A DNA stretch of 64,000 bases from an uncultured bacterium. Its GTDB lineage: Bacteria; Acidobacteriota; Thermoanaerobaculia; Multivoradales; JAHZIX01. The stretch is from positions 1 through 64,000 of the forward strand of contig CBDUPA010000021.1 of assembly GCA_965368975.1 (NCBI GenBank), read 5' to 3'. A program made the position numbers and the translations under genes. Under the pieces are notes generated by a model that saw only the letters and a list, made by a program, of their open reading frames with translations, was not told where the DNA came from and searched no databases. This document shows positions 1 to 61,837 of this stretch, piece after piece; the first letter of the stretch is position 1; each line of letters opens with the position of its first letter.

Positions 1-3000
1 CGCTGTAGCTGAGGTGCTGGCGTCCATGGACGAGGGCGATGCGCTCTCCGTTGCCGTGTTCCAAGGCCTGGGCCGCGACGCGGGCGGGGATCGAGTCGGG
101 ACGCTTGATGCTGACGGGTGCGGCGGCGACCGGGTTCCACTCGCGCAGCAGCTGGTGCCGCTCGGCCATACCGAGAAGGGGCAGGTCAGCCGCCGGCGTC
201 TCAGGTGCAACAACCGCGGCGCGTAGCAGACGCTCGAAGGATCGGGCCAGGCGTTGCACGGTGGTGACGTCGAAGAGCGCGGTGTCGTACTCCAGCACAC
301 CGTCGAGTCCGCCAGCGCCCGGAGCGTCCGGAGAGGTAGGCCGCAGCAGCAGGCTGAGGTCGAACTTGGAGGTACCGGTATCCGGCTCCCGAGGCCGCAG
401 CTCGACGACCTGCCGTCCGCATTCGCCGTCCCGCTCCAGACGCAGCGCCGGCATCGGAGCGTTCTGCAGCGCCAACAGGGCCTGGAACAGCGGCGTGTGG
501 GCGGTGTCGCGACGTGGAACCAGGGCCTCTACGAGTTTCTCGAACGGCACATCCTGGTGCGCGTAGGCGTCGAGCGTCCCGGCACGCGCCCGCCGCAGCA
601 GGGTGCGGAACGTCAGCCGCCCGCTGGCGTCCCCCCTCAGATCTCCCGTCAGGACCAGCGTGTTGACGAAGAGCCCGATCAAGCTCTCCGTTTCGGCCAC
701 TCGACGACCGGCCACCGGTGTCCCGACCTGGACGCGCGATTGCCCAGCGTGGCGGCCGAGCAGCACCTGGAACGCTGAGAGCAGGACCATGAAGAGGGTG
801 GCGCCTTCGCGGCGGGCGAGGGCCGTGACGTCGGCGGCGAGGGTGGCCGGTAGCTGCAGTGCGAGTGTTGCACCGTGCCCGCTGCGCGACGCCGGGCGCG
901 GACGGTCGGTCGGCAGGTCGAGGCGAGCGTCGGCGTCGAGGTGCTGGCGCCAGTAGTCGAGCTGCGCGTCCAGCACCCGGCCCCGTAGCCAGCGGCGCTG
1001 CCAGACGGCGAAGTCAGCATACTGGATCGGCAAGGGCGGCAAGGATTCACCCGCGTACAACGCCCGCAGTTCACGCAGCAGGATGCCGGTCGACCAGCCG
1101 TCGGCGACGGTGTGGTGGAAGGTCAGGAGAAGGACGGAAGACCCGCTCCCCAACACCAACACCCCCCGTACCAGCGGCCCCGTCGCCAAATCGAACGGTC
1201 GCCGACTCTCCTCCCGCACGATCTGCTCGACGACTCGCTCCTCCACGGACGACTCCCCCGCCTCCACGATCTCCAGCCGGAACGCGGCTTCCCCCACTGC
1301 CTGGTAAGGCCGCTCGACACCGTCCTCCCCCACTTCGACCGGGAAGTGCGTGCGCAAGACTTCGTGGCGTTGCACCAGCGCGGCCAGCGCGGTCTGGAGG
1401 GCCTCGACGTCTAGCCCCCCCGGCAACTCGCCCCGCAGCTCCACCGCGATCGGGATGTTGTAGGCCGGCGAGCCGGGATCGAGACGATCGAGCAACCACA
1501 GACGCTGCTGGGCGAAGGACAGGGGCGGCCGATCTCCAGCGAGGTCCCCAGCGAGACCGGGCAGCAGCGGCGGCAACTCGACGCTCCCTGCGGCGGACGA
1601 CTCGACGGACTGCTCGGCGACGGCGGCGGCTAGTTCCCCGACGCTGGGTGCTTCGAACAGCCGGCGCAGCGGTAGCTCGACACCGAAGGCGGCGCGCAGG
1701 CGCGACGTCACTTGGGTGGCGAGCAGGGAGTGACCACCGAGGGTGAAGAAGTCGTCTTGGCGCCGGAGGGTGGCGGCGTCGACGTCCAGGACTTGGGCGA
1801 AGATACCGGCGACGATCTGCTCGTGCGGGCTCAATTCGACGGCATCTCCAACCTCGGATGTCTCAGCCAGGCGCTGCGACGCTTCCGCCGCCAGGGCGCG
1901 CCGATCCGGCTTACCACCCGCTCCGGCGGCAGCCAGCCGGGGCAATGCTTCGACGCACCACAACGCCGACGGCACGGCTGCTTGCGGCAGGTGCTGGCGG
2001 AGGTAGGCGCGCAGCTCGTCTGGCTGCAAGTTCGATTGGCAGCTCGACTCGACGAAAGCGACCAGCTGGTCGGGATCGTTCACCCCGCGTCGTGCCACCA
2101 GGGCGACGGCGTCGCGAACCTGCGGGTGAGCCTGCAACTGCGCCTCGATCTCACCCAATTCCAGGCGTAGACCGCGCAGCTTGACCTGGTGGTCGAGGCG
2201 GCCGAGGAATTCGGGCTCGGCAGGGTTATCGGGGCCGAGGCGACGCCAGCGGACGAGGTCACCGGTGCGGTAGAGGCGAGCGCCGGAGACCGGATCCGGG
2301 ACAAACCGCTCCGCAGTCAAACCCGGACGCCCCAGGTAGCCACGCGCGACGCCGGGACCACCGATGCACAGCTCCCCCGGTACGCCCTCGGGCAGCGGCT
2401 CGACCATCGGCACCTCCATTCCGGCTGGACGCAGCACGTGAAGACGCAGGCCGGCGGCAGGGCTGCCAAGGGTTACGGGCACGTCAGCACTCAGGACGTG
2501 GGCGGCGGATGCGTTCGCGGTCGTCTCAGTGGGACCGTAGAGATTGACGATCTCGACCGCCGGCAGCAGCGTACGCGTGCGCCGCACCAGGTCGGGTGTG
2601 AGGGCTTCGCCGCCCAGCAGCAGGCGTCGCAAGCTGATCGGTGCCGGTCCGTCGCCCGCTTCGGCAGCCAGCAGCAAGGCGCGCCACACCGACGGCACGC
2701 TGTTGAACCCGGCAGCTCCCGGCACCGCCGCCAGAGCCGTCAGAGCTCGCGGCGGATCCTGCACCAGCTCGGACGGCCACAGGGCGACCGTGCCTCCCTC
2801 GACCAACGGCACGAAGAGCTGCTTCCAGGCGGCATCGAAGTTGAAGCGCGTGGTCGCCGGCAGCACGTCGATCCCGTCGAGCAGGGCGTCCGCGGCCCAT
2901 AGGACGTAGTCCGCCAGCGCACCGTGGTCTACAGCCACGCCCTTCGGGCGACCAGTGGAACCGGAAGTGTAGAGAACGTAGGCCAGGTGGTGGCGCTCCG

Positions 3001-6000
3001 GCTTCTGGGTAGGGGTACCCCCATGTGGGTACCCTGCGGGGTGGCGGGCAGATTCCGATCCGGTCGCCCTGACCACCGGCATCTCGACATCCAGCGCGGC
3101 CAGGACTTCCCCGGCTTCGCCTACCGTCACCAGCACCACCGGTGCCGCGTCCGCCAGCACGTGGCGCAGGCGCTCCGGCGGGTCGGTCGGGTCGAGCGGC
3201 AGGAAGGCAGCGCCGGTGCGCCAAACACCCAGGATTGCCGCCAGCGCCGCCGGCACTCGCGACGCCAGCACGGCCACCAGCGTCTCGGGACCGGCGCCGT
3301 GGGCGCGCAGGCGCTCGCTCAGCTCGGCTGTACGAGCGTCCAGTTCGGCGTAGGTCAGGCGCTCTTCGGAACCTTCCAGGACCACCGCCAGCGCCTCGGG
3401 CGCGCGCCGGATCTGCGCCGCGATCCAGGCCGGAACGGTGACGGCTTCCGGCAACGTATCCAGCACGTCTGCGTGCTGGCGGCGCGCGGCGCCCCAGCTC
3501 AGCACCTCGACGCGCTCGGCGTCGCTGAGCATGGGCAATGTCGACAAGCGGGCTCGCGGCGAGGCCAGCGCGGCGGTCAGCAGGCGCTCGAAGTAGCGGG
3601 CCCAGCGTTCGGCGGTGGTGCGCTCGAAGAGGTCGGTGGCGTAGCCAAGGATTCCTTCGATCCCTGCCTTTGCCTCACCCGGACCGGACCTCTGCCACAG
3701 CGACAGCGTCAGGTCGAACTTCTGCGTCACCGTTTCCGACGCGCTCGCCTCGACCTCGAGGCCCGGCAGGTCCGGCGCTACGAAGGGCGCGTTGTTGAAC
3801 GCCAGCATCACCTGGAAGAGCGGTGTTCGGCCGAGATCGGCCGCCGCCGCGACCTCGTGTACCAGCTGCTCGAAGGGCACGCTCTGGTGCGCGAAGGCCC
3901 CCAACGCCGTCACGCGAACCTGGTCGAGCAGATCGGCGAAAGTCGGGTCGTGCCGCAGGTCGGCGCGCAGCACCAGGGTGTTGACGAAGAAGCCGATCAG
4001 GGGCTCGGTGTCCGGGTGGACACGACCGGCCGTCGGAATACCGATCGCGACATCCGCCTGGTTGGCCAGGCGTGCGAGCAGGACCTGGAAGACCGCGCTG
4101 AGAGTCATGAAGAGGGTGGCCCCCCCTGGAGACGCAGCCCCTCCCAGCGCATCGACCGACTCGGCGTTCAGACGGACGGCCACGGCGTCGCCGCGATAGC
4201 TGGGGGTTGCGGGGCGCGGGCGATCCGTGGGCAAGGCCAGCATCTCGACGCCGTCGAGCCGCCGTCGCCACCAGGCCAGGTCGGCCGCCACCGCTTCCGA
4301 AGTCTGCACGTGGTCCAACTGCCAGGCGGCGAAATCCGCGTACTGGATGGGTAGGGGCGGCAACGTCTCGCCACGGTAGAAAGTGCCGAGCTCTCGCGCC
4401 AGCACGCCGAGGGACCAGCCGTCACCCGCGATGTGGTGGAGGGTGAGGAGCAGGTCGGCACGCGTCTCCGCGGAAAAGCTCCTCACCACCAGCAGCCAGC
4501 GCACGACGGGCCCCGCTTCCAGGTCGAAGCCCCGCAGCGCCTCGGCTCGCGCCAGCCGCTCGGCTTCCGGCTCCTGCTCTGCCGGCGGCAGGCGGCCCAG
4601 ATCCACGACCGGCAACCTCACCTCGACCTGCGGCACGATGCACTGCCACGGTTCGCCGTCATCGCCGACCGGGTAGACGGTGCGCAGGACTTCGTGGCGC
4701 TCGACGAGGGTGCGCAGTGCCCGCGCCAGCTGCTCGACGTCCAACGCTCCGCCCCTTGTGCCACTCAACCTCAGGCGGCCGGGCACGTTGTAGGCCGGGT
4801 TTCCCTGCCGTGCGTCTGGCTGCAGACGGTCGAACAGCCACAGCCGGTACTGCTGCGGCGACAAGCGGAGCGGAGCGGCGCGCGGCACGGGTTCGATGTG
4901 CGCGGCAGCGCTGGAAGAGGTGGCGCTGGAAGACGTGTCCGGCGACAGACGCTCGACAGCCGTGACCAGTTCGGCCAGCGTCTGGGCTTCGAAGGGCAGC
5001 GTCAAGGGGGCTTCGACACCCAGCTCGCTACGCAGGCGCGCGGTCAAGCGGGCGGCGGCCAGGGAGTGGCCACCGCGGGCAAAGAAGTTGTCTTCCAGGT
5101 AGATGCCATCGGCGTCGAGATCCAAGATGTCCGCCCACAGCGTGGCTAGCTTCTGCTCCGTGGCGGTTGAAGCTGGTGTGCCCGCCCCGCCGGAGGCCAT
5201 GGCGCCCTCTAGCTGCCCATCTAGCTTCTCGGCTAGTTGCTCAAAGAGGACGCGACGGTCGATCTTGCCGTTCGGCGTGTGCGGCAACTCGGCCAGCTCG
5301 ACGATCAGCGTCGGCACCATGTAGGCGGGCAGGCGCTGTGCGAGGTGAGCTCGCACGTCGTCCCGGCTGTCCAGTGCATCGCTGGTGACCGCGACGGCGG
5401 CGACGAGCCGAGCTTCGGCCGTGCCTTGCTGCACCAGCACCGCCGCTTCCTGCACGCGCGGATGCGCCACCAGGCAGGCTTCGATCTCGCCCAGCTCGAT
5501 GCGGAAGCCGCGTAACTTGACCTGGTGATCGAGGCGGCCGAGAAACTCGAGCTCTCCGTCGCGACGCCAGCGGGCGAGGTCACCGGTACGGTAGGTCCGG
5601 CTACCGGGCGCATAGGCGTCATTGGGATGGGCATCCGGACGCCCTTCGGGACGAAAGCGCTCCGCCGTCAGCGCAGGCCGCCCGAGGTAGCCACGCGCCA
5701 GACCGGCACCGGCGAGCACCAGCTCTCCCGGTACTCCGAGTGGCTGCGGTTCGTGCAGCGCGGAGTCCGCGCGACCGAGCACGTAGGCGCGCGTGCCATC
5801 GATCGGCCGGCCGATGGTCGGCGGCTCGTTCCGCGCTTCGGGTCGTGGCACGCGCGTCCAGGTCGAGTAGGTGGTGTCTTCGGACGGTCCATAGAGGTTG
5901 TAGACCGCCGCGACCCGCGGCTTAGCATAGAGCCCCTGGGCCAGGGCCGCGGTCAGGGGCTCGCCCGCCAGGTTGATAGTCACTGGTGGCCCCTCGTCGC

Positions 6001-35361: not shown

Positions 35362-35769
35362 ATGGACATGAAAGATCGACCCTATGATCTGACCCCACCC
35401 AAGGCCAACCTGGTGAGCGACGCGCGCTCTGGTTCTTCCTCCGGCGTTCGTCCAGCTGCTCCGACCTGGAAGGAAGACACGAGCTGGCAGGAAAACACCG
35501 CCTGGAAGGTCGGGCAGGCCAAGCAGCACTTGCCGGAACTGCTGCGCCGTGTCGAGGAGGAACCCCAAGTGATCTGTAAACGAACCACTCCTGTTGCCGC
35601 CGTCGTGCGCTATGACGACTTCCTGGAGTTCCAAACCTGGAAGCAGAAGCACCAGAAGCGCCCCCTGGCCGCGATCATTGAGGGCCTGACCGCCGCTTGC
35701 GCCGAAGCGGACTTCACGCTGGAAATCCCCGAGCGCCGCAACCGACTGACACCCTTCGACGAGCTATGA
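35362..35769 (+). CDS. Phd/YefM-family antitoxin with N-terminal extension
   Basis: WKVGQAKQHLPELLRRVEEEPQVICKRTTPVAAVV; ATGA overlap with the PIN toxin. Confidence 0.8.
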   Translation: MDMKDRPYDLTPPKANLVSDARSGSSSGVRPAAPTWKEDTSWQENTAWKVGQAKQHLPELLRRVEEEPQVICKRTTPVAAVVRYDDFLEFQTWKQKHQKRPLAAIIEGLTAACAEADFTLEIPERRNRLTPFDEL

Positions 35770-36170
35770 GCTTCCTTTGTGACACCAACGTGGTCAGTGA
35801 GCTGGCCAAGCCACGACCGCATGCCGGCGTGGTGCGCTGGATGCAGGACTTGCCCGTCCTTTTCCTGAGCGCCATCAGCGTCGAAGAAATGAGCTACGGC
35901 CTGCAGCGACTGCCCGCAGGTAACTCGAGCCAGCGCATCCGCGTCTGGCTCGAACAGCTCCTCGACGCCGCCGAGATCCTCCCGATCACCGCCGACATCG
36001 CCCGCCGTGCCGGTCACCTACGCGGCCGCTTCGCCGCCCAAGGCCAGACCCGCAGTCAAGCCGACCTGCTGATCGCCGCCACCGCCCAACTCGGCTCGAT
36101 GACCGTCGTAACCCGCAACACTCGGGACTTCGAAGGCTGTCAGGTGCCGGTGTTCGATCCCTTCGACTGA
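35766..36170 (+). CDS. vapC: VapC-family PIN-domain toxin
   Basis: FLCDTNVVSEL, SAISVEEM, DLLIAATA, VVTRNTRDF. Confidence 0.92.
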   Translation: MSFLCDTNVVSELAKPRPHAGVVRWMQDLPVLFLSAISVEEMSYGLQRLPAGNSSQRIRVWLEQLLDAAEILPITADIARRAGHLRGRFAAQGQTRSQADLLIAATAQLGSMTVVTRNTRDFEGCQVPVFDPFD

Positions 36171-52251: not shown

Positions 52252-54390
52252 CTAGAAGCTGTAGGCCAGCCCCAAGCTATAGAAGCTGACTTCGCCAGAC
52301 GTGTCGTAGAGGTACGGCGTGTCGTCCTGGAAGTCGAGATAGCGATACCCGCCGGTGACGGCCAGCTGCGCGGTGGCCTGATAGCGCAAGCGCAGCGCCA
52401 GCTCCAAGCGGGAGAGATCGAGATCGGAGTTGGTGTGGGTCAGGGTGAAGTCGTAACTCTGGTTGGGGTTGAGCAGAGTGCCGGGGACCTCGAAGTCGAA
52501 GGGCGCGAGGGCGGCTTCAGCCTCGGTCCACGCCAGATCCAATCCCAGTTCGAGTTCGTTCGTGGGCTGCCACTCGAGACCGGTGGCGATCACGCTGTCG
52601 TTGGTGTCGTAGTTGAGCAGAGTGCGTGCCGAGCCAGACTGGCCCGAAAGGATCGAGCCTGCTCAGCCATCGAAGATGGGGATGAACGATGGATACTTCA
52701 GCTCGGTATCGTGCCAGGCATAGGAGCCGTACCACTGCCAGGTCTCCGCCGGCGCCCACCAGAGAGTCGCAGTGAAGCTCTGGTGCGTGCGCGACCAGTC
52801 GGTGAAGTCGAGGTCTTCCGAGCCGTCGTTGTCACCGTCCCACCAGGTGTAGGAGGCGCTGAAGTTGCTCTTGCCGGTGGCGTACGTGCCCCCCAGCTTG
52901 ACCTCGTCCCAGCTCTCGGCGGCCGCCGTCGTGTCCGCGACGCGCGCGTCCTGGAACTCGTAGTATTGCGCCGCAGTCGGTGCGAAGGGGCTGGGAGCAG
53001 CACTCGAGACCAGGGTCGAGAAGGCACCGTCGACCGTCGCGAAGGGATGGTCGACCTGGCCGTGGCGATAGCCCGCGGACAGGCGCAGACCTTGGCGCGG
53101 CCTGGCCCACCAGCGCAGCCCCAGGACATTCTCGGTGGTGTCGGTCTCACCGAGCGCGACCTCGTAGTGATCCCGTCGTAGATCCTCGTACTCCCAGAGC
53201 AGCCGCACTCGCCCCGCCTTGCCGGGAAGCTTGGTGGTCAAGTCGAGCTTGGAGTCGAAGATCTCGCGGTCGAGGGCCGACTGTCGCAGGTAGTCTGGAT
53301 CGAAGCCGTAGACGTCACGGAAGGTACGACCAGCATGCGGCCCCGCAATGCCAGGCGGCTCGGCGATGTCGACGAAGATGTCGTCGCTGTCGATCTGCGT
53401 GTAGCGGCCACGCCAGCGCAGTTTCCAGCGCTCGTGGAAGGTGTGCACCGCGTTCACCGCATAGCCATCGTAGTGCGCCGACAACCCCGTGAGTTCGTTC
53501 TCGGTCTGCGACCAGACGCCACTGGCATCCAGGGCCAGGCCGCCGGGACGCGCGAAGCTGAGGGTCAGCTTGGCGATGTCCTTGCTGGTGTCTGGGCGCT
53601 GGTGCACCGGCTGCGGACCCTGAGCCGAGTCCCACTGCAGGCGGTTGTCGAACACCGGGACGCGCAACTCGGGTTGCAGGGCGTCGTCGAACAGAAGGTC
53701 GATATCACGCACACCTTCGCGCAGCTCGCGCCGGACATAGCTGGCGCGCAGCTGGGTGTGTTGCCAGGCATAGGAAACCTCGACACCGACGTCTTCCGTG
53801 CTCTCGTCGAGCGGCCGACTCTGACTGTAGACATGGCAGGAGTCGCAGTGCGAGATGGTGAGCGCCTGGTATTGCCCTTCGCGTTCCTGGCGACGGTAGA
53901 GCAAGGCCAGGGTGAGAGCATCCCAGTCGCGAGGTTGGAACTCGGTGCGATGCCGCAGGTCACTGTAGGTGAGCTCGTAGTCGGCAGCCGGATCCAGGTC
54001 GGTGTGATGGACGTAGCGGCCGTGATTGGTAGCCGCTTCGAGATTGGACAGTGGATCGTGACCCAAACGATGGAAGAGCTTCAGGAACTCGGTGCTCGAG
54101 CGCAGCTGACGCCCCCCCAAGTCGAACGCCAAGCGGTGCATCTGGTCGTCGTCGTCGCGCCAGTCGAGGTCGAGATCGAGAAAGCCCGCCTCCAGTGCGC
54201 TGGTGAAGCGTAGTTGCAGATCGACACCGCCATCGGTTGTCTCGTATTCACTGACCACATCGGGGGAGCCATCGACATCCGCATCCCAGACACCAACTTG
54301 CAGCTCACCTTCCTGGGTCTCCTCGGTGAAGCCCACTGCCGGCAGGACGAGCAGCATGCCCAGCAGCAAAGGGCAGAACAAGCGTTTCAT
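52252..54390 (-). CDS. MtrB/PioB-like decaheme-associated porin with a CXXCH motif and in-frame UGA (probable selenocysteine), 712 aa
   Basis: Track ORFs 52663..54390 and 52252..52593 are in one frame, separated only by TGA 52663-52665 (FIPIFDG-U-AGSILSG). Signal peptide; HCDSCH; C-terminal YSLGLAYSF is reached only by readthrough. Confidence 0.88.
52614..52665 (-). promoter_or_regulatory. Putative bacterial SECIS element
   Basis: mRNA: UGAGCAG-GCUCGAUCCUUU-CGGGCCA-GUC-UGGCUCG-GCACGCACU-CUGCUCA. A 7-bp lower stem includes the UGA; the 7-bp upper stem has a G-first loop with 23 nt between UGA and loop. Confidence 0.75.
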
Positions 54391-54405: not shown

Positions 54406-55359
54406 TTACCAGGTCAGGCCGCGACCCTGGCCGGGAACCGTCTGCGACGGCAGGTCCGAACCATGGACTCGGGAGTGGCACTGAGTGCAGCTGGTGGTGA
54501 AGGCGATGTTCATGCCGCGAGGGCCAAACGGGTTCTCACGCTCAAAACCGCCGATCTCCACTTCGTCACCTTCGCCGCCGCGATAGCCGGAGTGGAAGTG
54601 TGGCTCGTGGCACTGCAGGCACAGCGCCGGTTCGTTCGCCACCAGCAGGTTGTCCGCCACTGATCCATGCGGATTGTGGCAGCTCGAGCAGTCTTCTTGC
54701 ACCGGTTCGTGCTCGAAGACGAAGGGGCCTTCTTTGTCCTGGTGGCAGTCGTAGCACAGGTCGTTACTGCGCAGCGCGGTCCGTAGCTGTCCCTCGCGTG
54801 CGTTGTGCACGTCATGGCAGCTGGCGCAGTCCATCTTGCCTTCACGCAATGGATGGTGCGACGGCAGCCGGAAGCTGGCGACCACGGCGCCATGGCAATC
54901 CTGGCAACTGTCGAGTGATGCCACTCTCGTCTCGGCGCGGTGGACCGAGTGGCAGTCGGTGCAACCCACATCTTCAAGGGCGTGCGTCGAAGCGTGCCAC
55001 TGGCCCAGCCCTTTGACCTGGTGACACGAGAGGCAGGTCTTGTCGCCCCAGGTCGTATCACCAAAGCCGCCGATGCTCTCGGGCGTCATCTCATCAATGT
55101 GCACCGAGCCCGGGCCATGGCAACCCTCGCAGCCGGTCGCACGGCCTTGCACTTCAAAGGGCTGGATGCGCGCATGAATCTGCGCCAAGCCGAGCTGCAG
55201 GTCTTCGTGACAGGTTAGGCAGGTTTCGTCGCCGACGTACTCGGCGGGTATGCCATCGAGCGAGGCGCTTCCCGCCGGGGAGAGATCGGCAGGATGACGC
55301 GCCGCGACGGTCCCGAGTAGCACCAGCGACACTGAGCAGAAGAGCAGTGTGCCTCTCAC
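54406..55359 (-). CDS. Periplasmic decaheme c-type cytochrome, DmsE/MtrA family
   Basis: Ten CxxCH motifs: CLTCH, CEGCH, CLSCH, CTDCH, CQDCH, CASCH, CYDCH, CSSCH, CLQCH, CTQCH. Also GPFVFEHEPV and VHGSDLPS. Start GTG 55359 after GAAGGAGG. Confidence 0.95.
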   Translation of the reverse strand: MRGTLLFCSVSLVLLGTVAARHPADLSPAGSASLDGIPAEYVGDETCLTCHEDLQLGLAQIHARIQPFEVQGRATGCEGCHGPGSVHIDEMTPESIGGFGDTTWGDKTCLSCHQVKGLGQWHASTHALEDVGCTDCHSVHRAETRVASLDSCQDCHGAVVASFRLPSHHPLREGKMDCASCHDVHNAREGQLRTALRSNDLCYDCHQDKEGPFVFEHEPVQEDCSSCHNPHGSVADNLLVANEPALCLQCHEPHFHSGYRGGEGDEVEIGGFERENPFGPRGMNIAFTTSCTQCHSRVHGSDLPSQTVPGQGRGLTW

Positions 55360-55541
55360 GGCGGGACCTCCTTCCCTTGCTCCGCAAGTGCGAATCGCGC
55401 TCGGGAGCGAATTCATCGTCATCCCGAATTTAGCGCGACAGCGAACTACAGGCATCCACCGAGAGGAGAGTTAGTCCGCCGTCTGATCGGAGTGGTGGAC
55501 TGCCCGAAAGGGTAGCAAGAGGCGCTGCGGACTGTACCTTG

Positions 55542-56896
55542 CTACGTCACCGCGGTCTGCTGCCGGAACTCTCCTCTCCGCCACTCCTCGTCGATCATGA
55601 CCCGCCGCAGAGCTTCGACCGCATCCCACATGTCGACGTAGCGCAGGTAGAGCGGTGCCAAGCCGAAGCGCAGGACGTCTGGAGCGCGGAAGTCGCCGAT
55701 CACGCCTCGGGCGATGAGCGCTTGCACGATGGCGTATCCCTCGGGGTGGCGCAGGCAGACCTGACTGCCGCGCTGCTGGGCACCTTCAGGGCACGCCAGC
55801 TCGAGAGCGAAGTCTGCGCACCGCTCGGCAACGAGCCGCAAGAAGAGATCGCCCAACCGCATCGACTTGCGGCGCACCGCGTGCAGGTCGACGCCGTCCC
55901 AGACATCGAGAGCGGCGTCGAGAGCGGCCAGGCTGAGGATGGGGGGCGTGCCGCAGACGAAGCGCTGAATGCCGTCGGCGGGACGGTAGTCGAGGTCGAA
56001 GGCGAAGGGAGCTTCGTGGCCGAGCCAGCCACTGAGCGGTGAATGGACCCACGGCTGCAAGCGCTCGGCGACGTAGAGGAAGGCCGGAGCACCAGGCCCC
56101 CCGTTGAGATACTTGTAACCACAGCCGACGGCGAGATCGACGTTGCAGGCGTCCAGTTCGACGGGCAGTGCACCAGCGCTGTGGGCCAGGTCCCAGAGCA
56201 TCAAGGCACCCGCATCGTGGACAGCCCGGGTGACGGCTTGCATGTCGTGCTGGGCCCCGGTCCTGAAGTCGACGTGGGTCAGAGCGACGACCGCGACGGC
56301 ATCACCATGCTCGCGCAGGGCAGCGCTCAGACCTTCTGCGACAGGCTCGCGGCTGCACGGGGCGGCGTCGATCACCTGCACGCGGCATCGATCCTCCCCC
56401 AGAAGCCTTGCATGATGTAGAGGTCGGAAGGGAAATTGCCGCGTTCGGACAGGATGAGTGATAGGCCCCCTGGCTTGCCTGCGGCCCCCTTTGGCTTGCC
56501 AACAGCCCTCCCCGGCTTGCCAACAGCCCTCCCCGGCTTACCAACAGTAAAGTCGAGAGCAGCGGCGAGCAGTTTGAACAAATTGGCGGACGTAGAGTCC
56601 GCGACCATCACCTGGCCAGGTTTCGCCCCGACGAGCCGGGCGATCTTGTCGCCGGTACGGCGAGCCAGATCGATCCAGCCATGCTGATTCCAAGAGCGGA
56701 TGAGATCGTGCCCCCACTCCTGCGTGACCACCTGCTGCAGGCGCTCGGGGACCCCGAGCGGCAGGGCGCCGAGGGAGTTGCCGTCGAGGTAGAGAACACC
56801 TTCGGGCAAGGAAAACTCGAGGCGCAGGGATGCCAGGGGATCGTCGTGGTCGAGAGCGGCGCAAGCGTCGCGGCTAGCCAGGGCAGAAGCAGGCAT
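55542..56896 (-). pseudogene. kynU: Kynureninase split by a frameshift near 56400
   Basis: N-half has YLDGNSLG, LIRSWN and NFPSDLYIMQG. C-half, in another frame, has WDLAHSAG, GCGYKYLNGGPG, RGSQV and GDFRAPD. Confidence 0.85.
56464..56547 (-). repeat. 21-nt tandem repeat, about 4 imperfect copies, encoding GKPGRAV units inside kynU
   Basis: ggcttgccaacagccctcccc twice exactly (56493-56534) with degenerate flanking copies. Confidence 0.9.
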
Positions 56897-59460: not shown

Positions 59461-59721
59461 TCAGTCGAGAGGGGCGATCTTTCCCGGAGCTTCCAAATTC
59501 TCGGCGTGGTGCCAGGCGTCGAGAAGATCGCGTTGGTGCAGCGAGGCCCACTCCGAGACCAGGCCCATCGCCCGCGGCGGCAACTTGCCGGCCAAGACCG
59601 CCAGCGAATGAATCTCGATCAGCACCTCGTGCTTGCCGTAGAACGCATGAAAGTGCGGCGGAGCATGGTCACCGAAGTACATGCGGATGACGATGCCGTA
59701 GAAACGGCACAGTTCAGGCAT
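59461..59721 (-). CDS. DUF4160 family protein (putative TA component)
   Basis: MPELCRFYGIVIRMYFGDHAPPHFHAFYG...KIAPLD. Confidence 0.85.
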   Translation of the reverse strand: MPELCRFYGIVIRMYFGDHAPPHFHAFYGKHEVLIEIHSLAVLAGKLPPRAMGLVSEWASLHQRDLLDAWHHAENLEAPGKIAPLD

Positions 59722-59998
59722 GGATGGCTGGCGGTAGACCACATTCGAACAGCACATCCGGCTGCATGCGAGTCAGCTGCAAGTAGAGGCTGTCCGCGCA
59801 CAACTCGACATCGTCTGTCCAGGCGATAGAACCATGATCGCTGACATGAACTTGTTCGAAGCAGGAGCGATCGTCCCAGATGCTGAAGACACCCTTCCCG
59901 GCGAAGGAACTGAGATCGACTTCTCCCACGATATCGTCCGCGTACCGCAACCAAATACGGTAGCCGTCGCGAGCCTCGACTTGGATTGGTCTCACCAT
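59714..59998 (-). CDS. DUF2442 family protein (putative TA component)
   Basis: VEARDGYRIWLRYADDIVGEVDLS, GSIAWTDDVELCADSLY; 8-nt overlap with DUF4160. Confidence 0.82.
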   Translation of the reverse strand: MVRPIQVEARDGYRIWLRYADDIVGEVDLSSFAGKGVFSIWDDRSCFEQVHVSDHGSIAWTDDVELCADSLYLQLTRMQPDVLFECGLPPAIHA

Positions 59999-60000
59999 AG

Positions 60001-61251
60001 TGCGGCAAGCCTATCATCCTGCTGACCAGCCTGGAGCCGGGACGCGCCTACGACGAGCAACAGCTGCGCGACGCGGTCCATCGCATCCAGCGCCTGCCGT
60101 TCATTCTCGACGCCGAGCTGGCCCTGCGTCGGGGCAGCGTGCGCGGCCAATACCAGCTGGTGATCGAGGTGCAGGAGAGCCTGCTGTGGTTCTTCGGCGT
60201 GCAGCTGCGCGGCTACGTGTTCAACGAGTTCGTGTCGCTGGAAACCGGCTTCCGAACCGAGAACGAATCGAACTGGCTGATCACCGCCGGCATGCGCTAC
60301 TTCGTCGGCACGCGTGGCATGGCCTTCGCCGCCTACGGAGGCGACAGCTTTCTGCAAGCCGGCTACACGCAGTACGACATTCTCGACCGCGGCATCGTCG
60401 GCACCGTCGCCTGGACGCGTCACGAATGCTGCCCAGTGCGAGTGTTCTCGCTCGGCCTCGACCCGACCTTCTCCAGTTGGTCTCTGCGCGATGCCGAGCA
60501 GATCGAGCTCGTGGTCGGTGCACCGCTGCGAGGCAATCAATCGCTCGAGTTCAGCCTGCTGCACCTGCAAGCCGAACACGGCCTGCGTCAACGCGCCGCA
60601 GGTAGCCTGTTCCAGCGCCGGTGGGACATTCGCGACCTCACCTACGAGCGCGCCGAACTGGATTGGGTGCACAACACCACCGACGACAACCTACTGCCTC
60701 GTCAAGGGCAGGAACTGCGCGGCGGGCTCTTTCTGAATCGCCTTCGCGGTGAACTGACACCACTGAGCTCCTTCCTCGACCCAACCGACCTGGCACTGCC
60801 ACCGCCTGTCAGCGTCGACGCCCGCCAGTTCGGCGTCGCTCTGAGCGCCAGCCGCTACTGGCCCCTCACGCAGCGCCAAACACTGTCGCTGGGTGGTCGA
60901 GCCAGCCTCGGCCGCTCGGAGGTCGGCGACCTGCCTCGAGACCAGAACCTGCTCGCGCCCCAGCCGCCCCCAGGGCTCGGGCTCGGCAACACTGACCTCA
61001 CGAGCTACGAGCTGAACCTGCGTCTCGGACATGCTGTCAGCTTGTGGTCACAAGCCACGCAGCGTCGACGGCACGGCGAGCTGCGCTTCGAAACGGCTGT
61101 CGAATGGGCGCACGAGGGAACGTCCCCGGATCTCGATCTGCCTGACAACCCTCTGCAACGTCTCGACATATCGGCCGGCCTAGTGCTGCGCAACCGCTGG
61201 GGCCTGTTCCGACTCAGCTTCTCCTACGTACAGCTGGAGGGCCGGGAATGA
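60001..61251 (+). pseudogene. 5'-truncated POTRA plus beta-barrel (Omp85/BamA-like) gene
   Basis: Frame opens right after TAG 59998-60000 with POTRA-like LEPGRAYDEQQLRDAVHRIQRLPFILDAELALRRG, upstream of the first start codon. No signal peptide. Barrel motif HNTTDDNLLPRQG. Confidence 0.6.
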
Positions 61252-61432
61252 GTCGGTTCAGTGCGCCGATGCGCCTGCTCCCGCTGCTCTGGTTGCTCCT
61301 GCTGCTACCTATCGGGTCGTTCGCGGACGAAACGCCGGCTCCTCGCTTGCAATGGGTCGAACAACAAGTACGCCTGAGCGACCTGCCGTCAATCCTGCGG
61401 CGCCCTGAGGTCGAGAAGCAGTTGGGCAGTGG

Positions 61433-61436
<4 letters not shown>
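61248..61436 (+). pseudogene. N-terminal remnant of an exported protein
   Basis: Signal peptide and LPSILRRPEVEKQLGSGL, then an abrupt join to a sigma54 regulator fragment. Confidence 0.5.

Positions 61437-61837
<401 letters not shown>

Follow-up and report, generated by a model that had tools for sequence, protein, structure and literature searches.

The experimental precedent nearest to the gene described here is MccSep (ExtKL) of Geobacter sulfurreducens, a heme c protein in which an in-frame UGA and a SECIS-like hairpin have been proven experimentally to join two annotated open reading frames, and in which Sec lies next to a heme (PMC13510729; bioRxiv 10.1101/2025.11.18.688581; accessible text). 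The present gene resembles it in combining a UGA and a SECIS-like hairpin with a heme c protein, although MccSep is a periplasmic pentaheme enzyme without a barrel and our gene encodes a predicted MtrB-like beta-barrel porin of the GSU2204 family. That family is listed in the selenoprotein tables of two reviews (PMC13188914; PMC9312934), which in those tables give neither a SECIS nor a function for it. GSU2204 also appears in an expression table (PMC4070692), predicted selenoproteins have been reported from Acidobacteriota in the accessible literature, and the available main text of the MccSep paper makes no mention of GSU2204 (PMC13510729). The accessible text of the Haft and Gwadz preprint does not mention NF041027, the profile of this family, and the 2008 GOS paper that both reviews cite for the family refers to neither MtrB nor a cytochrome in its main text or four supplements. 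A literature search that left subscription papers and bioRxiv supplements outside, where reports could be missed, returned no SECIS description or experiment for the GSU2204 family.

For the RNA element itself, the bacterial SECIS model of Zhang and Gladyshev, as given in section 5 of one review (PMC13188914), specifies a loop of 3–9 nt on an upper stem of 4–16 bp, a G in the first two loop positions that is usually followed by G or U, a distance of 16–37 nt between the UGA and the apical loop, and a free energy of −7.5 kcal/mol or lower. In the 64-kb stretch of DNA from an uncultured Acidobacteriota analysed here (the window), an earlier note had interpreted a hairpin after an in-frame UGA as a SECIS, and this interpretation is supported by conservation of the apical stem, by covariation, and by codon resampling. 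We conclude that the element is very probably a canonical bacterial SECIS in a GSU2204-family porin gene, with UGA576 read as Sec. The class is not new, because the bacterial SECIS is textbook matter and the GSU2204 family is already in print as a predicted selenoprotein; what is added is phylogeny-aware RNA evidence for UGA recoding in this family.

The porin gene and its relatives

When TGA is read as a residue, the full gene (52252..54390, minus strand) encodes, according to profile searches and modelling, a 712-aa MtrB-like beta-barrel porin of the GSU2204 family; this protein carries a signal peptide, a single CxxCH motif, U576, and a Phe at its C-terminus. The predicted Sec codon (52663..52665, minus strand) is in frame and is followed by 136 codons and a TAG (52252..52662, minus strand), a segment that the homologous loci and the model assign to predicted strands 22–26 and the terminal Phe. 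Profile NF041027 ("GSU2204 family CXXCH-containing (seleno)protein") matches at 540.1 bits against a cut-off of 350, over positions 3–580 of 580, and ends at residue 575, just before the UGA. The C, C, and H of the heme-binding motif (C182, C185, and H186; residues 182–186; 53833..53847, minus strand) are present in all 115 aligned sequences, and the model topology places the motif at the tip of the strand 7/8 hairpin. PF11854 (MtrB_PioB) gives a weak match (30 bits against a cut-off of 23) and TIGR03509 none at E 0.001, while a PDB sequence search and a plasmid tblastn search returned no match.

An AlphaFold2 read-through model (residues 23–712, with Cys in place of Sec, built from 115 sequences, 34 of them extending over the C-terminal part) reaches a pLDDT of 92.7, and 26 strands can be counted from its secondary-structure list. 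MtrB likewise has 26 strands. The best structural match, over the full length, is Shewanella MtrB of the Mtr complex (PDB 6R2Q chain B, 6R2Q_B; TM 0.71; Z 27.3, rmsd 3.0, 575 residues aligned), the next entry reaching a Z of 17.0. The two also share an adjacent decaheme gene. In the window this is an MtrA-like partner, a decaheme c-type cytochrome of the NF041028 (GSU2203) family located upstream of the porin (54406..55455, minus strand; 345.6 bits against a cut-off of 325), a feature shared with the GSU2204 family, and a decaheme gene lies directly upstream of the porin in all 31 loci with enough flank. In contrast to MtrB, with which it has 11%–13% identity, the porin possesses its own CxxCH and a UGA-encoded residue, and no gene resembling that of MtrC was seen next to it in the window; the porin probably works like MtrB but forms a family of its own. 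In the model, residue 576 is the last of strand 21 and occupies the tip of a long hairpin; a stop at the UGA would remove 5 of the 26 predicted strands (22–26) and the terminal Phe. By the usual barrel topology, the hairpins that carry Sec576 and CxxCH would both face the cell exterior.

The window's clade (Acidobacteriota, mostly Thermoanaerobaculia) differs from other GSU2204-family members at one pair of residues. Cys457 and Cys569 occur together in 64 of the 115 aligned sequences and are both missing from the other 51, including the window, which has Phe at both positions; no sequence has only one. The pair probably forms a disulfide, and since it is absent from 51 sequences, Cys569 is not an obligatory partner of Sec. 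Within residues 572–576, Asp-Gly directly precedes Sec, as in the MccSep Sec peptide of the accessible preprint text (PMC13510729), which may be a coincidence.

Conservation and decoding of the UGA

The homologues came from one GTDB scan with a single peptide pattern, which yielded 38 loci, mostly from mutually related MAGs of Acidobacteriota/Thermoanaerobaculia, with pairwise protein identities of 22%–92% (median 43%). One of these (L005) ends before the site, and counts over 38 sites refer to the window and the 37 loci that cover it; the RNA alignment comprises the window and 36 loci (37 sequences), as L026 was too short to be included. TGA is kept at the site in all 37 loci that cover it, always in frame and never replaced by TAA or TAG, and Ala follows it directly in 36 of 37. 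In the 35 loci that are complete past the UGA, the frame continues for 137–139 codons to a terminal Phe in every case, and the two others run off the contig. Genome-wide reassignment of UGA was considered and rejected: the code is not reassigned because Trp is encoded by TGG (723 codons) and 18 of the 35 complete porin genes themselves use TGA as their terminator, an internal TGA occurring once per gene and only at this site.

Database entries reflect the same site. All but one of 102 other close proteins stop immediately before it, at xDG or xNG, the exception being a 401-aa fragment, and because these 101 proteins are cut off at the UGA, the porin is systematically mis-annotated. The best 150 of 334 representatives include 95 that end near the site, with Gly as the last residue in 93, together with 8 C-terminal fragments and 5 full-length proteins, the remainder being partial and unclassed. 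Two of the five full-length representatives carry Cys at the aligned position and lack, at the protein level, the GQxG motif, and the other three lack the loop. A search for a close full-length Cys form with the C-terminal region gave 4 matches among 2567 candidates, all of which end at the site.

It is improbable that a working SECIS here accompanies partial or complete decoding of the UGA as Cys by a SelC*-type tRNA(ReC). Such SECIS-dependent UGA-to-Cys decoding by tRNA(ReC) has been described in the accessible text of one paper (PMC13582414), and the two family members with Cys at the site would agree with it, as would the lack of visible Sec genes in the window: no selA, selB, selC, or selD was found in the 64 kb (48 of 53 called ORFs scanned against NCBIfam), no tRNA gene was found in the window, and no tRNA-Sec was found within the 38 loci. 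However, the tRNA(ReC)-like tRNAs of UXXU genomes occur in addition to the canonical tRNA(Sec), in approximately 17% of Sec-type genomes (PMC13582414, same text), and the retention of UGA in 37 of 37 loci with no drift to UGC or UGU fits a Sec requirement better than Cys decoding.

A further reading takes the UGA as a true stop that splits the barrel into two polypeptides, with the hairpin controlling downstream re-initiation or mRNA stability. Gene callers do report a separate downstream ORF, an ATG stands at codon +5 in 18 of 38 sites, and UGA is a normal stop in these genomes, yet the earliest available start codon lies anywhere between +4 and +52, and nothing in the downstream piece resembles a signal peptide (maximum hydropathy 1.8, against 2.69 for the real signal). 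Two separate polypeptides would also leave unaccounted for the exclusive use of in-frame TGA, the conserved residues that follow it, and the existence of full-length unsplit homologues, and we regard this reading as highly improbable. Read-through with Sec at residue 576 remains our preferred interpretation.

The hairpin and its conservation

The element lies in the coding region directly 3' of the in-frame UGA, as the bacterial SECIS model requires. On the minus strand, UGAGCAG (52665–52659) pairs with CUGCUCA (52620–52614), 38 nt further on, and encloses an inner stem of CGGGCCA (52646–52640) and UGGCUCG (52636–52630) with one G-U pair and a GUC cap (52637..52639); the loop G follows the UGA at a spacing of 23 nt in the window and 22 nt in four homologues, and the hairpin codons read AGSILSGQSGS. 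The pairing of both stems, the GUC cap, the two spacings in the window, and the encoded residues had been described in the earlier note and were confirmed upon re-reading the sequence. The apical hairpin (52629..52647, minus strand; +16 to +34 after the UGA), defined by folding and by the homologue alignment, is the conserved and covarying core, with a stem of 7–8 bp. In the window it has a 3-nt loop and 8 bp and, taken alone, an energy of −9.9 kcal/mol. The window hairpin falls within all four geometric constraints of the published model and differs from the consensus in nothing essential, although the lower stem of the family is variable and a competing hairpin occurs in the window's clade. 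Across all 38 sites the stem has 5–9 bp, and 37 reach −7.5 kcal/mol or lower in our own approximation, which is not bSECISearch; L002, at −4.5 kcal/mol, does not.

Comparison with the E. coli fdhF SECIS (NC_000913.3) shows the same position in the coding region just after the UGA, a small G-containing loop, and the letters GUCUG at the apex. The fdhF apex had been quoted correctly in the earlier note and begins 16 nt after UGA140. In fdhF, however, the first loop G is at +19, the loop has 4 nt, and the stem is bulged, whereas in the window the loop G is at +24, the loop has 3 nt, and the stem is unbulged. The likeness drawn to fdhF holds for the shared apical letters but is partly coincidental, as the GUC loop itself is found at only 1 of 38 sites, that of the window. 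The loop G(+24) is invariant (38/38) and +25 is G in 32 sites and U in 6, so the conserved loop rule is G followed by G or U, not GUC.

The apical stem is under RNA-level selection. It is paired in 94.6% of cells in the 37-sequence alignment, which establishes that the hairpin is conserved in UGA-bearing homologues, and the score of the whole structure was reached by none of 500 shuffles. Pair +17:+33 is G-C, C-G, or U-A among the homologues, and pair +18:+32 is G-C in 12 sequences, A-U in 11, U-A in 10, and G-U in 3, and is mismatched in one. Mapping onto the protein tree gives 8 changes at +18 and 8 at +32, of which 7 coincide, and this count ranks the pair first of 120,381 variable column pairs located 5–100 nt apart across the whole gene, the next best pair sharing 4. 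Testing for covariation, as had been proposed for this hairpin, thus uncovers repeated compensatory changes. In the Gly clade, +18:+32 links a synonymous position, the third of a Gly codon, with whether Phe, Tyr, or Ser is encoded five codons later, a coupling that protein selection does not explain. In L017, L018, and L022 a 7-bp stem is retained in a shifted register despite a Gly-to-Arg change. RNAalifold on the 37 sequences returned only 5 apical pairs (−0.58 kcal/mol) and no lower stem, which is weak when taken alone.

Silent sites point in the same direction. At three Gly codons of the element, downstream of the UGA, synonymous changes are absent, compared with 5–21 (mean 11.9) in 22 other conserved Gly codons; the invariant Gln codon in the element is uninformative, as other Gln codons change only 0–2 times. 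When synonymous codons were resampled with the amino acids fixed, the hairpin averaged −2.5 kcal/mol, against an actual −10.4 kcal/mol, with p<0.05 in 33 of 37 sequences and p 0.02 in the window. These per-sequence p-values are not independent, as the sequences are related, and the tree-based count is the safer figure. Codon choice alone fails to account for the hairpin.

The lower tier is less uniform. The lower stem (5' arm including the UGA, 52659..52665; 3' arm, 52614..52620; both minus strand, from folding and the homologue alignment) is paired in 76.8% of cells, has one pair with changes on both sides, and is absent from several clades, where the 3' arm is lost. The paired fraction of an 8-bp version was matched by 16 of 500 shuffles, and the lower stem beat synonymous resampling in 10 of 37 sequences, the window itself not being significant (p 0.16). 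Some selection on the lower stem is likely, because the Ala codon after the UGA is GCA in 19 of 36 sequences compared with 7% elsewhere. The lower stem is an accessory, only partly conserved feature, and the proposal of a two-tier SECIS stands for its apical tier and is overstated for its lower one. An extended 12-bp lower stem was also considered and is unconvincing at 75% paired.

A competing 7-bp hairpin (52641..52659, minus strand; +4 to +22) overlaps the SECIS 5' arm in the window's clade and wins in naked window RNA; the family as a whole retains only three of these pairs. As a conserved switch it was rejected, because it is 64% paired and 4 of its 7 pairs fail in roughly half of the sequences or more. 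Codon usage around the UGA shows two further biases against gene-wide usage: the Gly codon at +4 to +6 (52657–52659, minus strand) is GGC in 32 of 32 sequences, and the codons just before the UGA (52666–52671, minus strand) favour GAT (27/36) and GGT or GGG (34/37). Neither stem fully explains these biases, which may reflect decoding context.

Folding of the single sequence conveys much less than the alignment. The two-tier structure is the most stable one solely for the bare segment 52614–52665 (−19.6 kcal/mol); with flanks added (52590–52680), a different hairpin wins, the z value is an unremarkable −1.27, and 24 of 200 shuffled sequences are at least as stable. Of the 1257 TGA triplets on the two strands of the window, 145 (11.5%) are followed at a distance of 16–37 nt by a G-loop hairpin that reaches −7.5 kcal/mol or better, by a filter that is our approximation of the published model and not bSECISearch itself. 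Because so many triplets pass a similar filter, the feature is only about 1-in-9 unusual in the window sequence alone, and the evidence beyond chance comes from the homologues. The claim that the hairpin supports recoding independently of the protein argument is accordingly weak for the single sequence and becomes strong with homologue covariation. A further alternative, very improbable and largely refuted, is that the hairpin arises incidentally where a GC-rich genome encodes a Gly-rich beta-turn, with a changed code or a leaky stop accounting for read-through of the UGA: the residues do sit at a hairpin turn in the model, and the frequency of such hairpins and the modest z value would suit it, but the hairpin does not survive synonymous resampling, silent sites are constrained and covary, and Trp codons and terminal TGAs in the same genes speak against a changed code.

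The probability of the apical hairpin in naked window RNA is 0.39 when folded from −30 to +67 and 0.01 when folded from +1. If a ribosome at the UGA is assumed to cover 11 nt downstream, so that folding begins at +12, the probability rises to 0.99 in the window and exceeds 0.5 in 37 of 37 sequences. This result fits the established picture in which the lower region of the SECIS is unwound at the ribosome (PMC13188914, accessible text).

Searches for further elements returned little. No Rfam family reached its gathering score in the window. Covariance model R1, run over the window and the 38 loci (621,980 bases), recovered the 38 porin sites, 37 of which are its own training rows. Its best other match (L022:21393-21470, minus strand; 28.5 bits) has no UGA, lies antisense to a membrane-protein gene that we take to be nuoJ, and was judged to be due to chance. 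A motif search for other UGA-plus-apex sites in the window and loci gave 10 matches, none in a credible gene frame.

A possible role for Sec, and neighbouring genes

In the mechanism that we propose, a ribosome at UGA576 would cover approximately the first 11 nt downstream and would melt both the lower stem and the competing hairpin, leaving the apical hairpin at +16 to +34 standing, in keeping with its computed pairing probability of 0.99. By analogy with the E. coli mechanism, SelB-GTP-Sec-tRNA(Sec) would bind the G-first loop and insert Sec, and translation would go on for 136 codons to supply the last five strands and terminal Phe of the predicted 26-strand MtrB-like barrel. Without Sec insertion, the product would be a 575-aa incomplete barrel that is probably not assembled. 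The complete barrel most likely holds the upstream decaheme to form a porin-cytochrome electron conduit, with Sec and heme c carried, according to the predicted strand topology, on long extracellular hairpins. The analysis defines a minimal element for which natural compensatory variants exist, and the more interesting question becomes the role of Sec on the outside of a heme-bearing electron-conduit porin.

A tentative and, as a whole, rather unlikely answer is that Sec576 and the porin heme c, at the tips of the strand 21/22 and 7/8 extracellular hairpins, could meet over the lumen above the last decaheme heme, where, as an analogue of MccSep, they would act on sulfur or selenium species as a Sec/heme redox site at the cell surface. 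In the same tentative proposal the SECIS would also make conduit assembly selenium-dependent, because strands 22–26 and the terminal Phe would be lost on termination at the UGA; if true, assembly of the whole electron conduit would depend on selenium in these uncultured Acidobacteriota.

Several genes near the decaheme-porin pair are worth recording. A 7-CxxCH cytochrome lies upstream of the pair in seven loci (L007, at 2938–4344, and L009, L014, L024, L027, L029, and L006). This cytochrome is a relative of octaheme tetrathionate reductase (TIGR04315; 298.8 bits, short of the cut-off of 375), and a small monoheme protein occurs near the pair in seven partly different loci; these neighbours hint at sulfur-compound respiration. 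Downstream of the porin, ORFs with 23 CxxCH motifs are found at L016:3761-6940 and L032:5994-9176, the former also having a cytochrome b (formate dehydrogenase gamma-like) part.

Elsewhere in the window, a kynureninase-like gene (55542–56896, minus strand) lies in two frames, its downstream part corresponding to TIGR01814 positions 161–399, with a short repeated Gly/Lys/Pro-rich insert before the break, which may be a frameshift or an assembly error. A short ORF followed by a second one, presumably only the C-terminal part of a sigma-54 response regulator, at 61248–61837 (plus strand) may represent a broken or mis-assembled locus. Two small overlapping ORFs at 59461–59998 (minus strand) are presumably a DUF2442/DUF4160 pair, and a Phd-family antitoxin is paired with a VapC-like toxin at 35362–36167 (plus strand).
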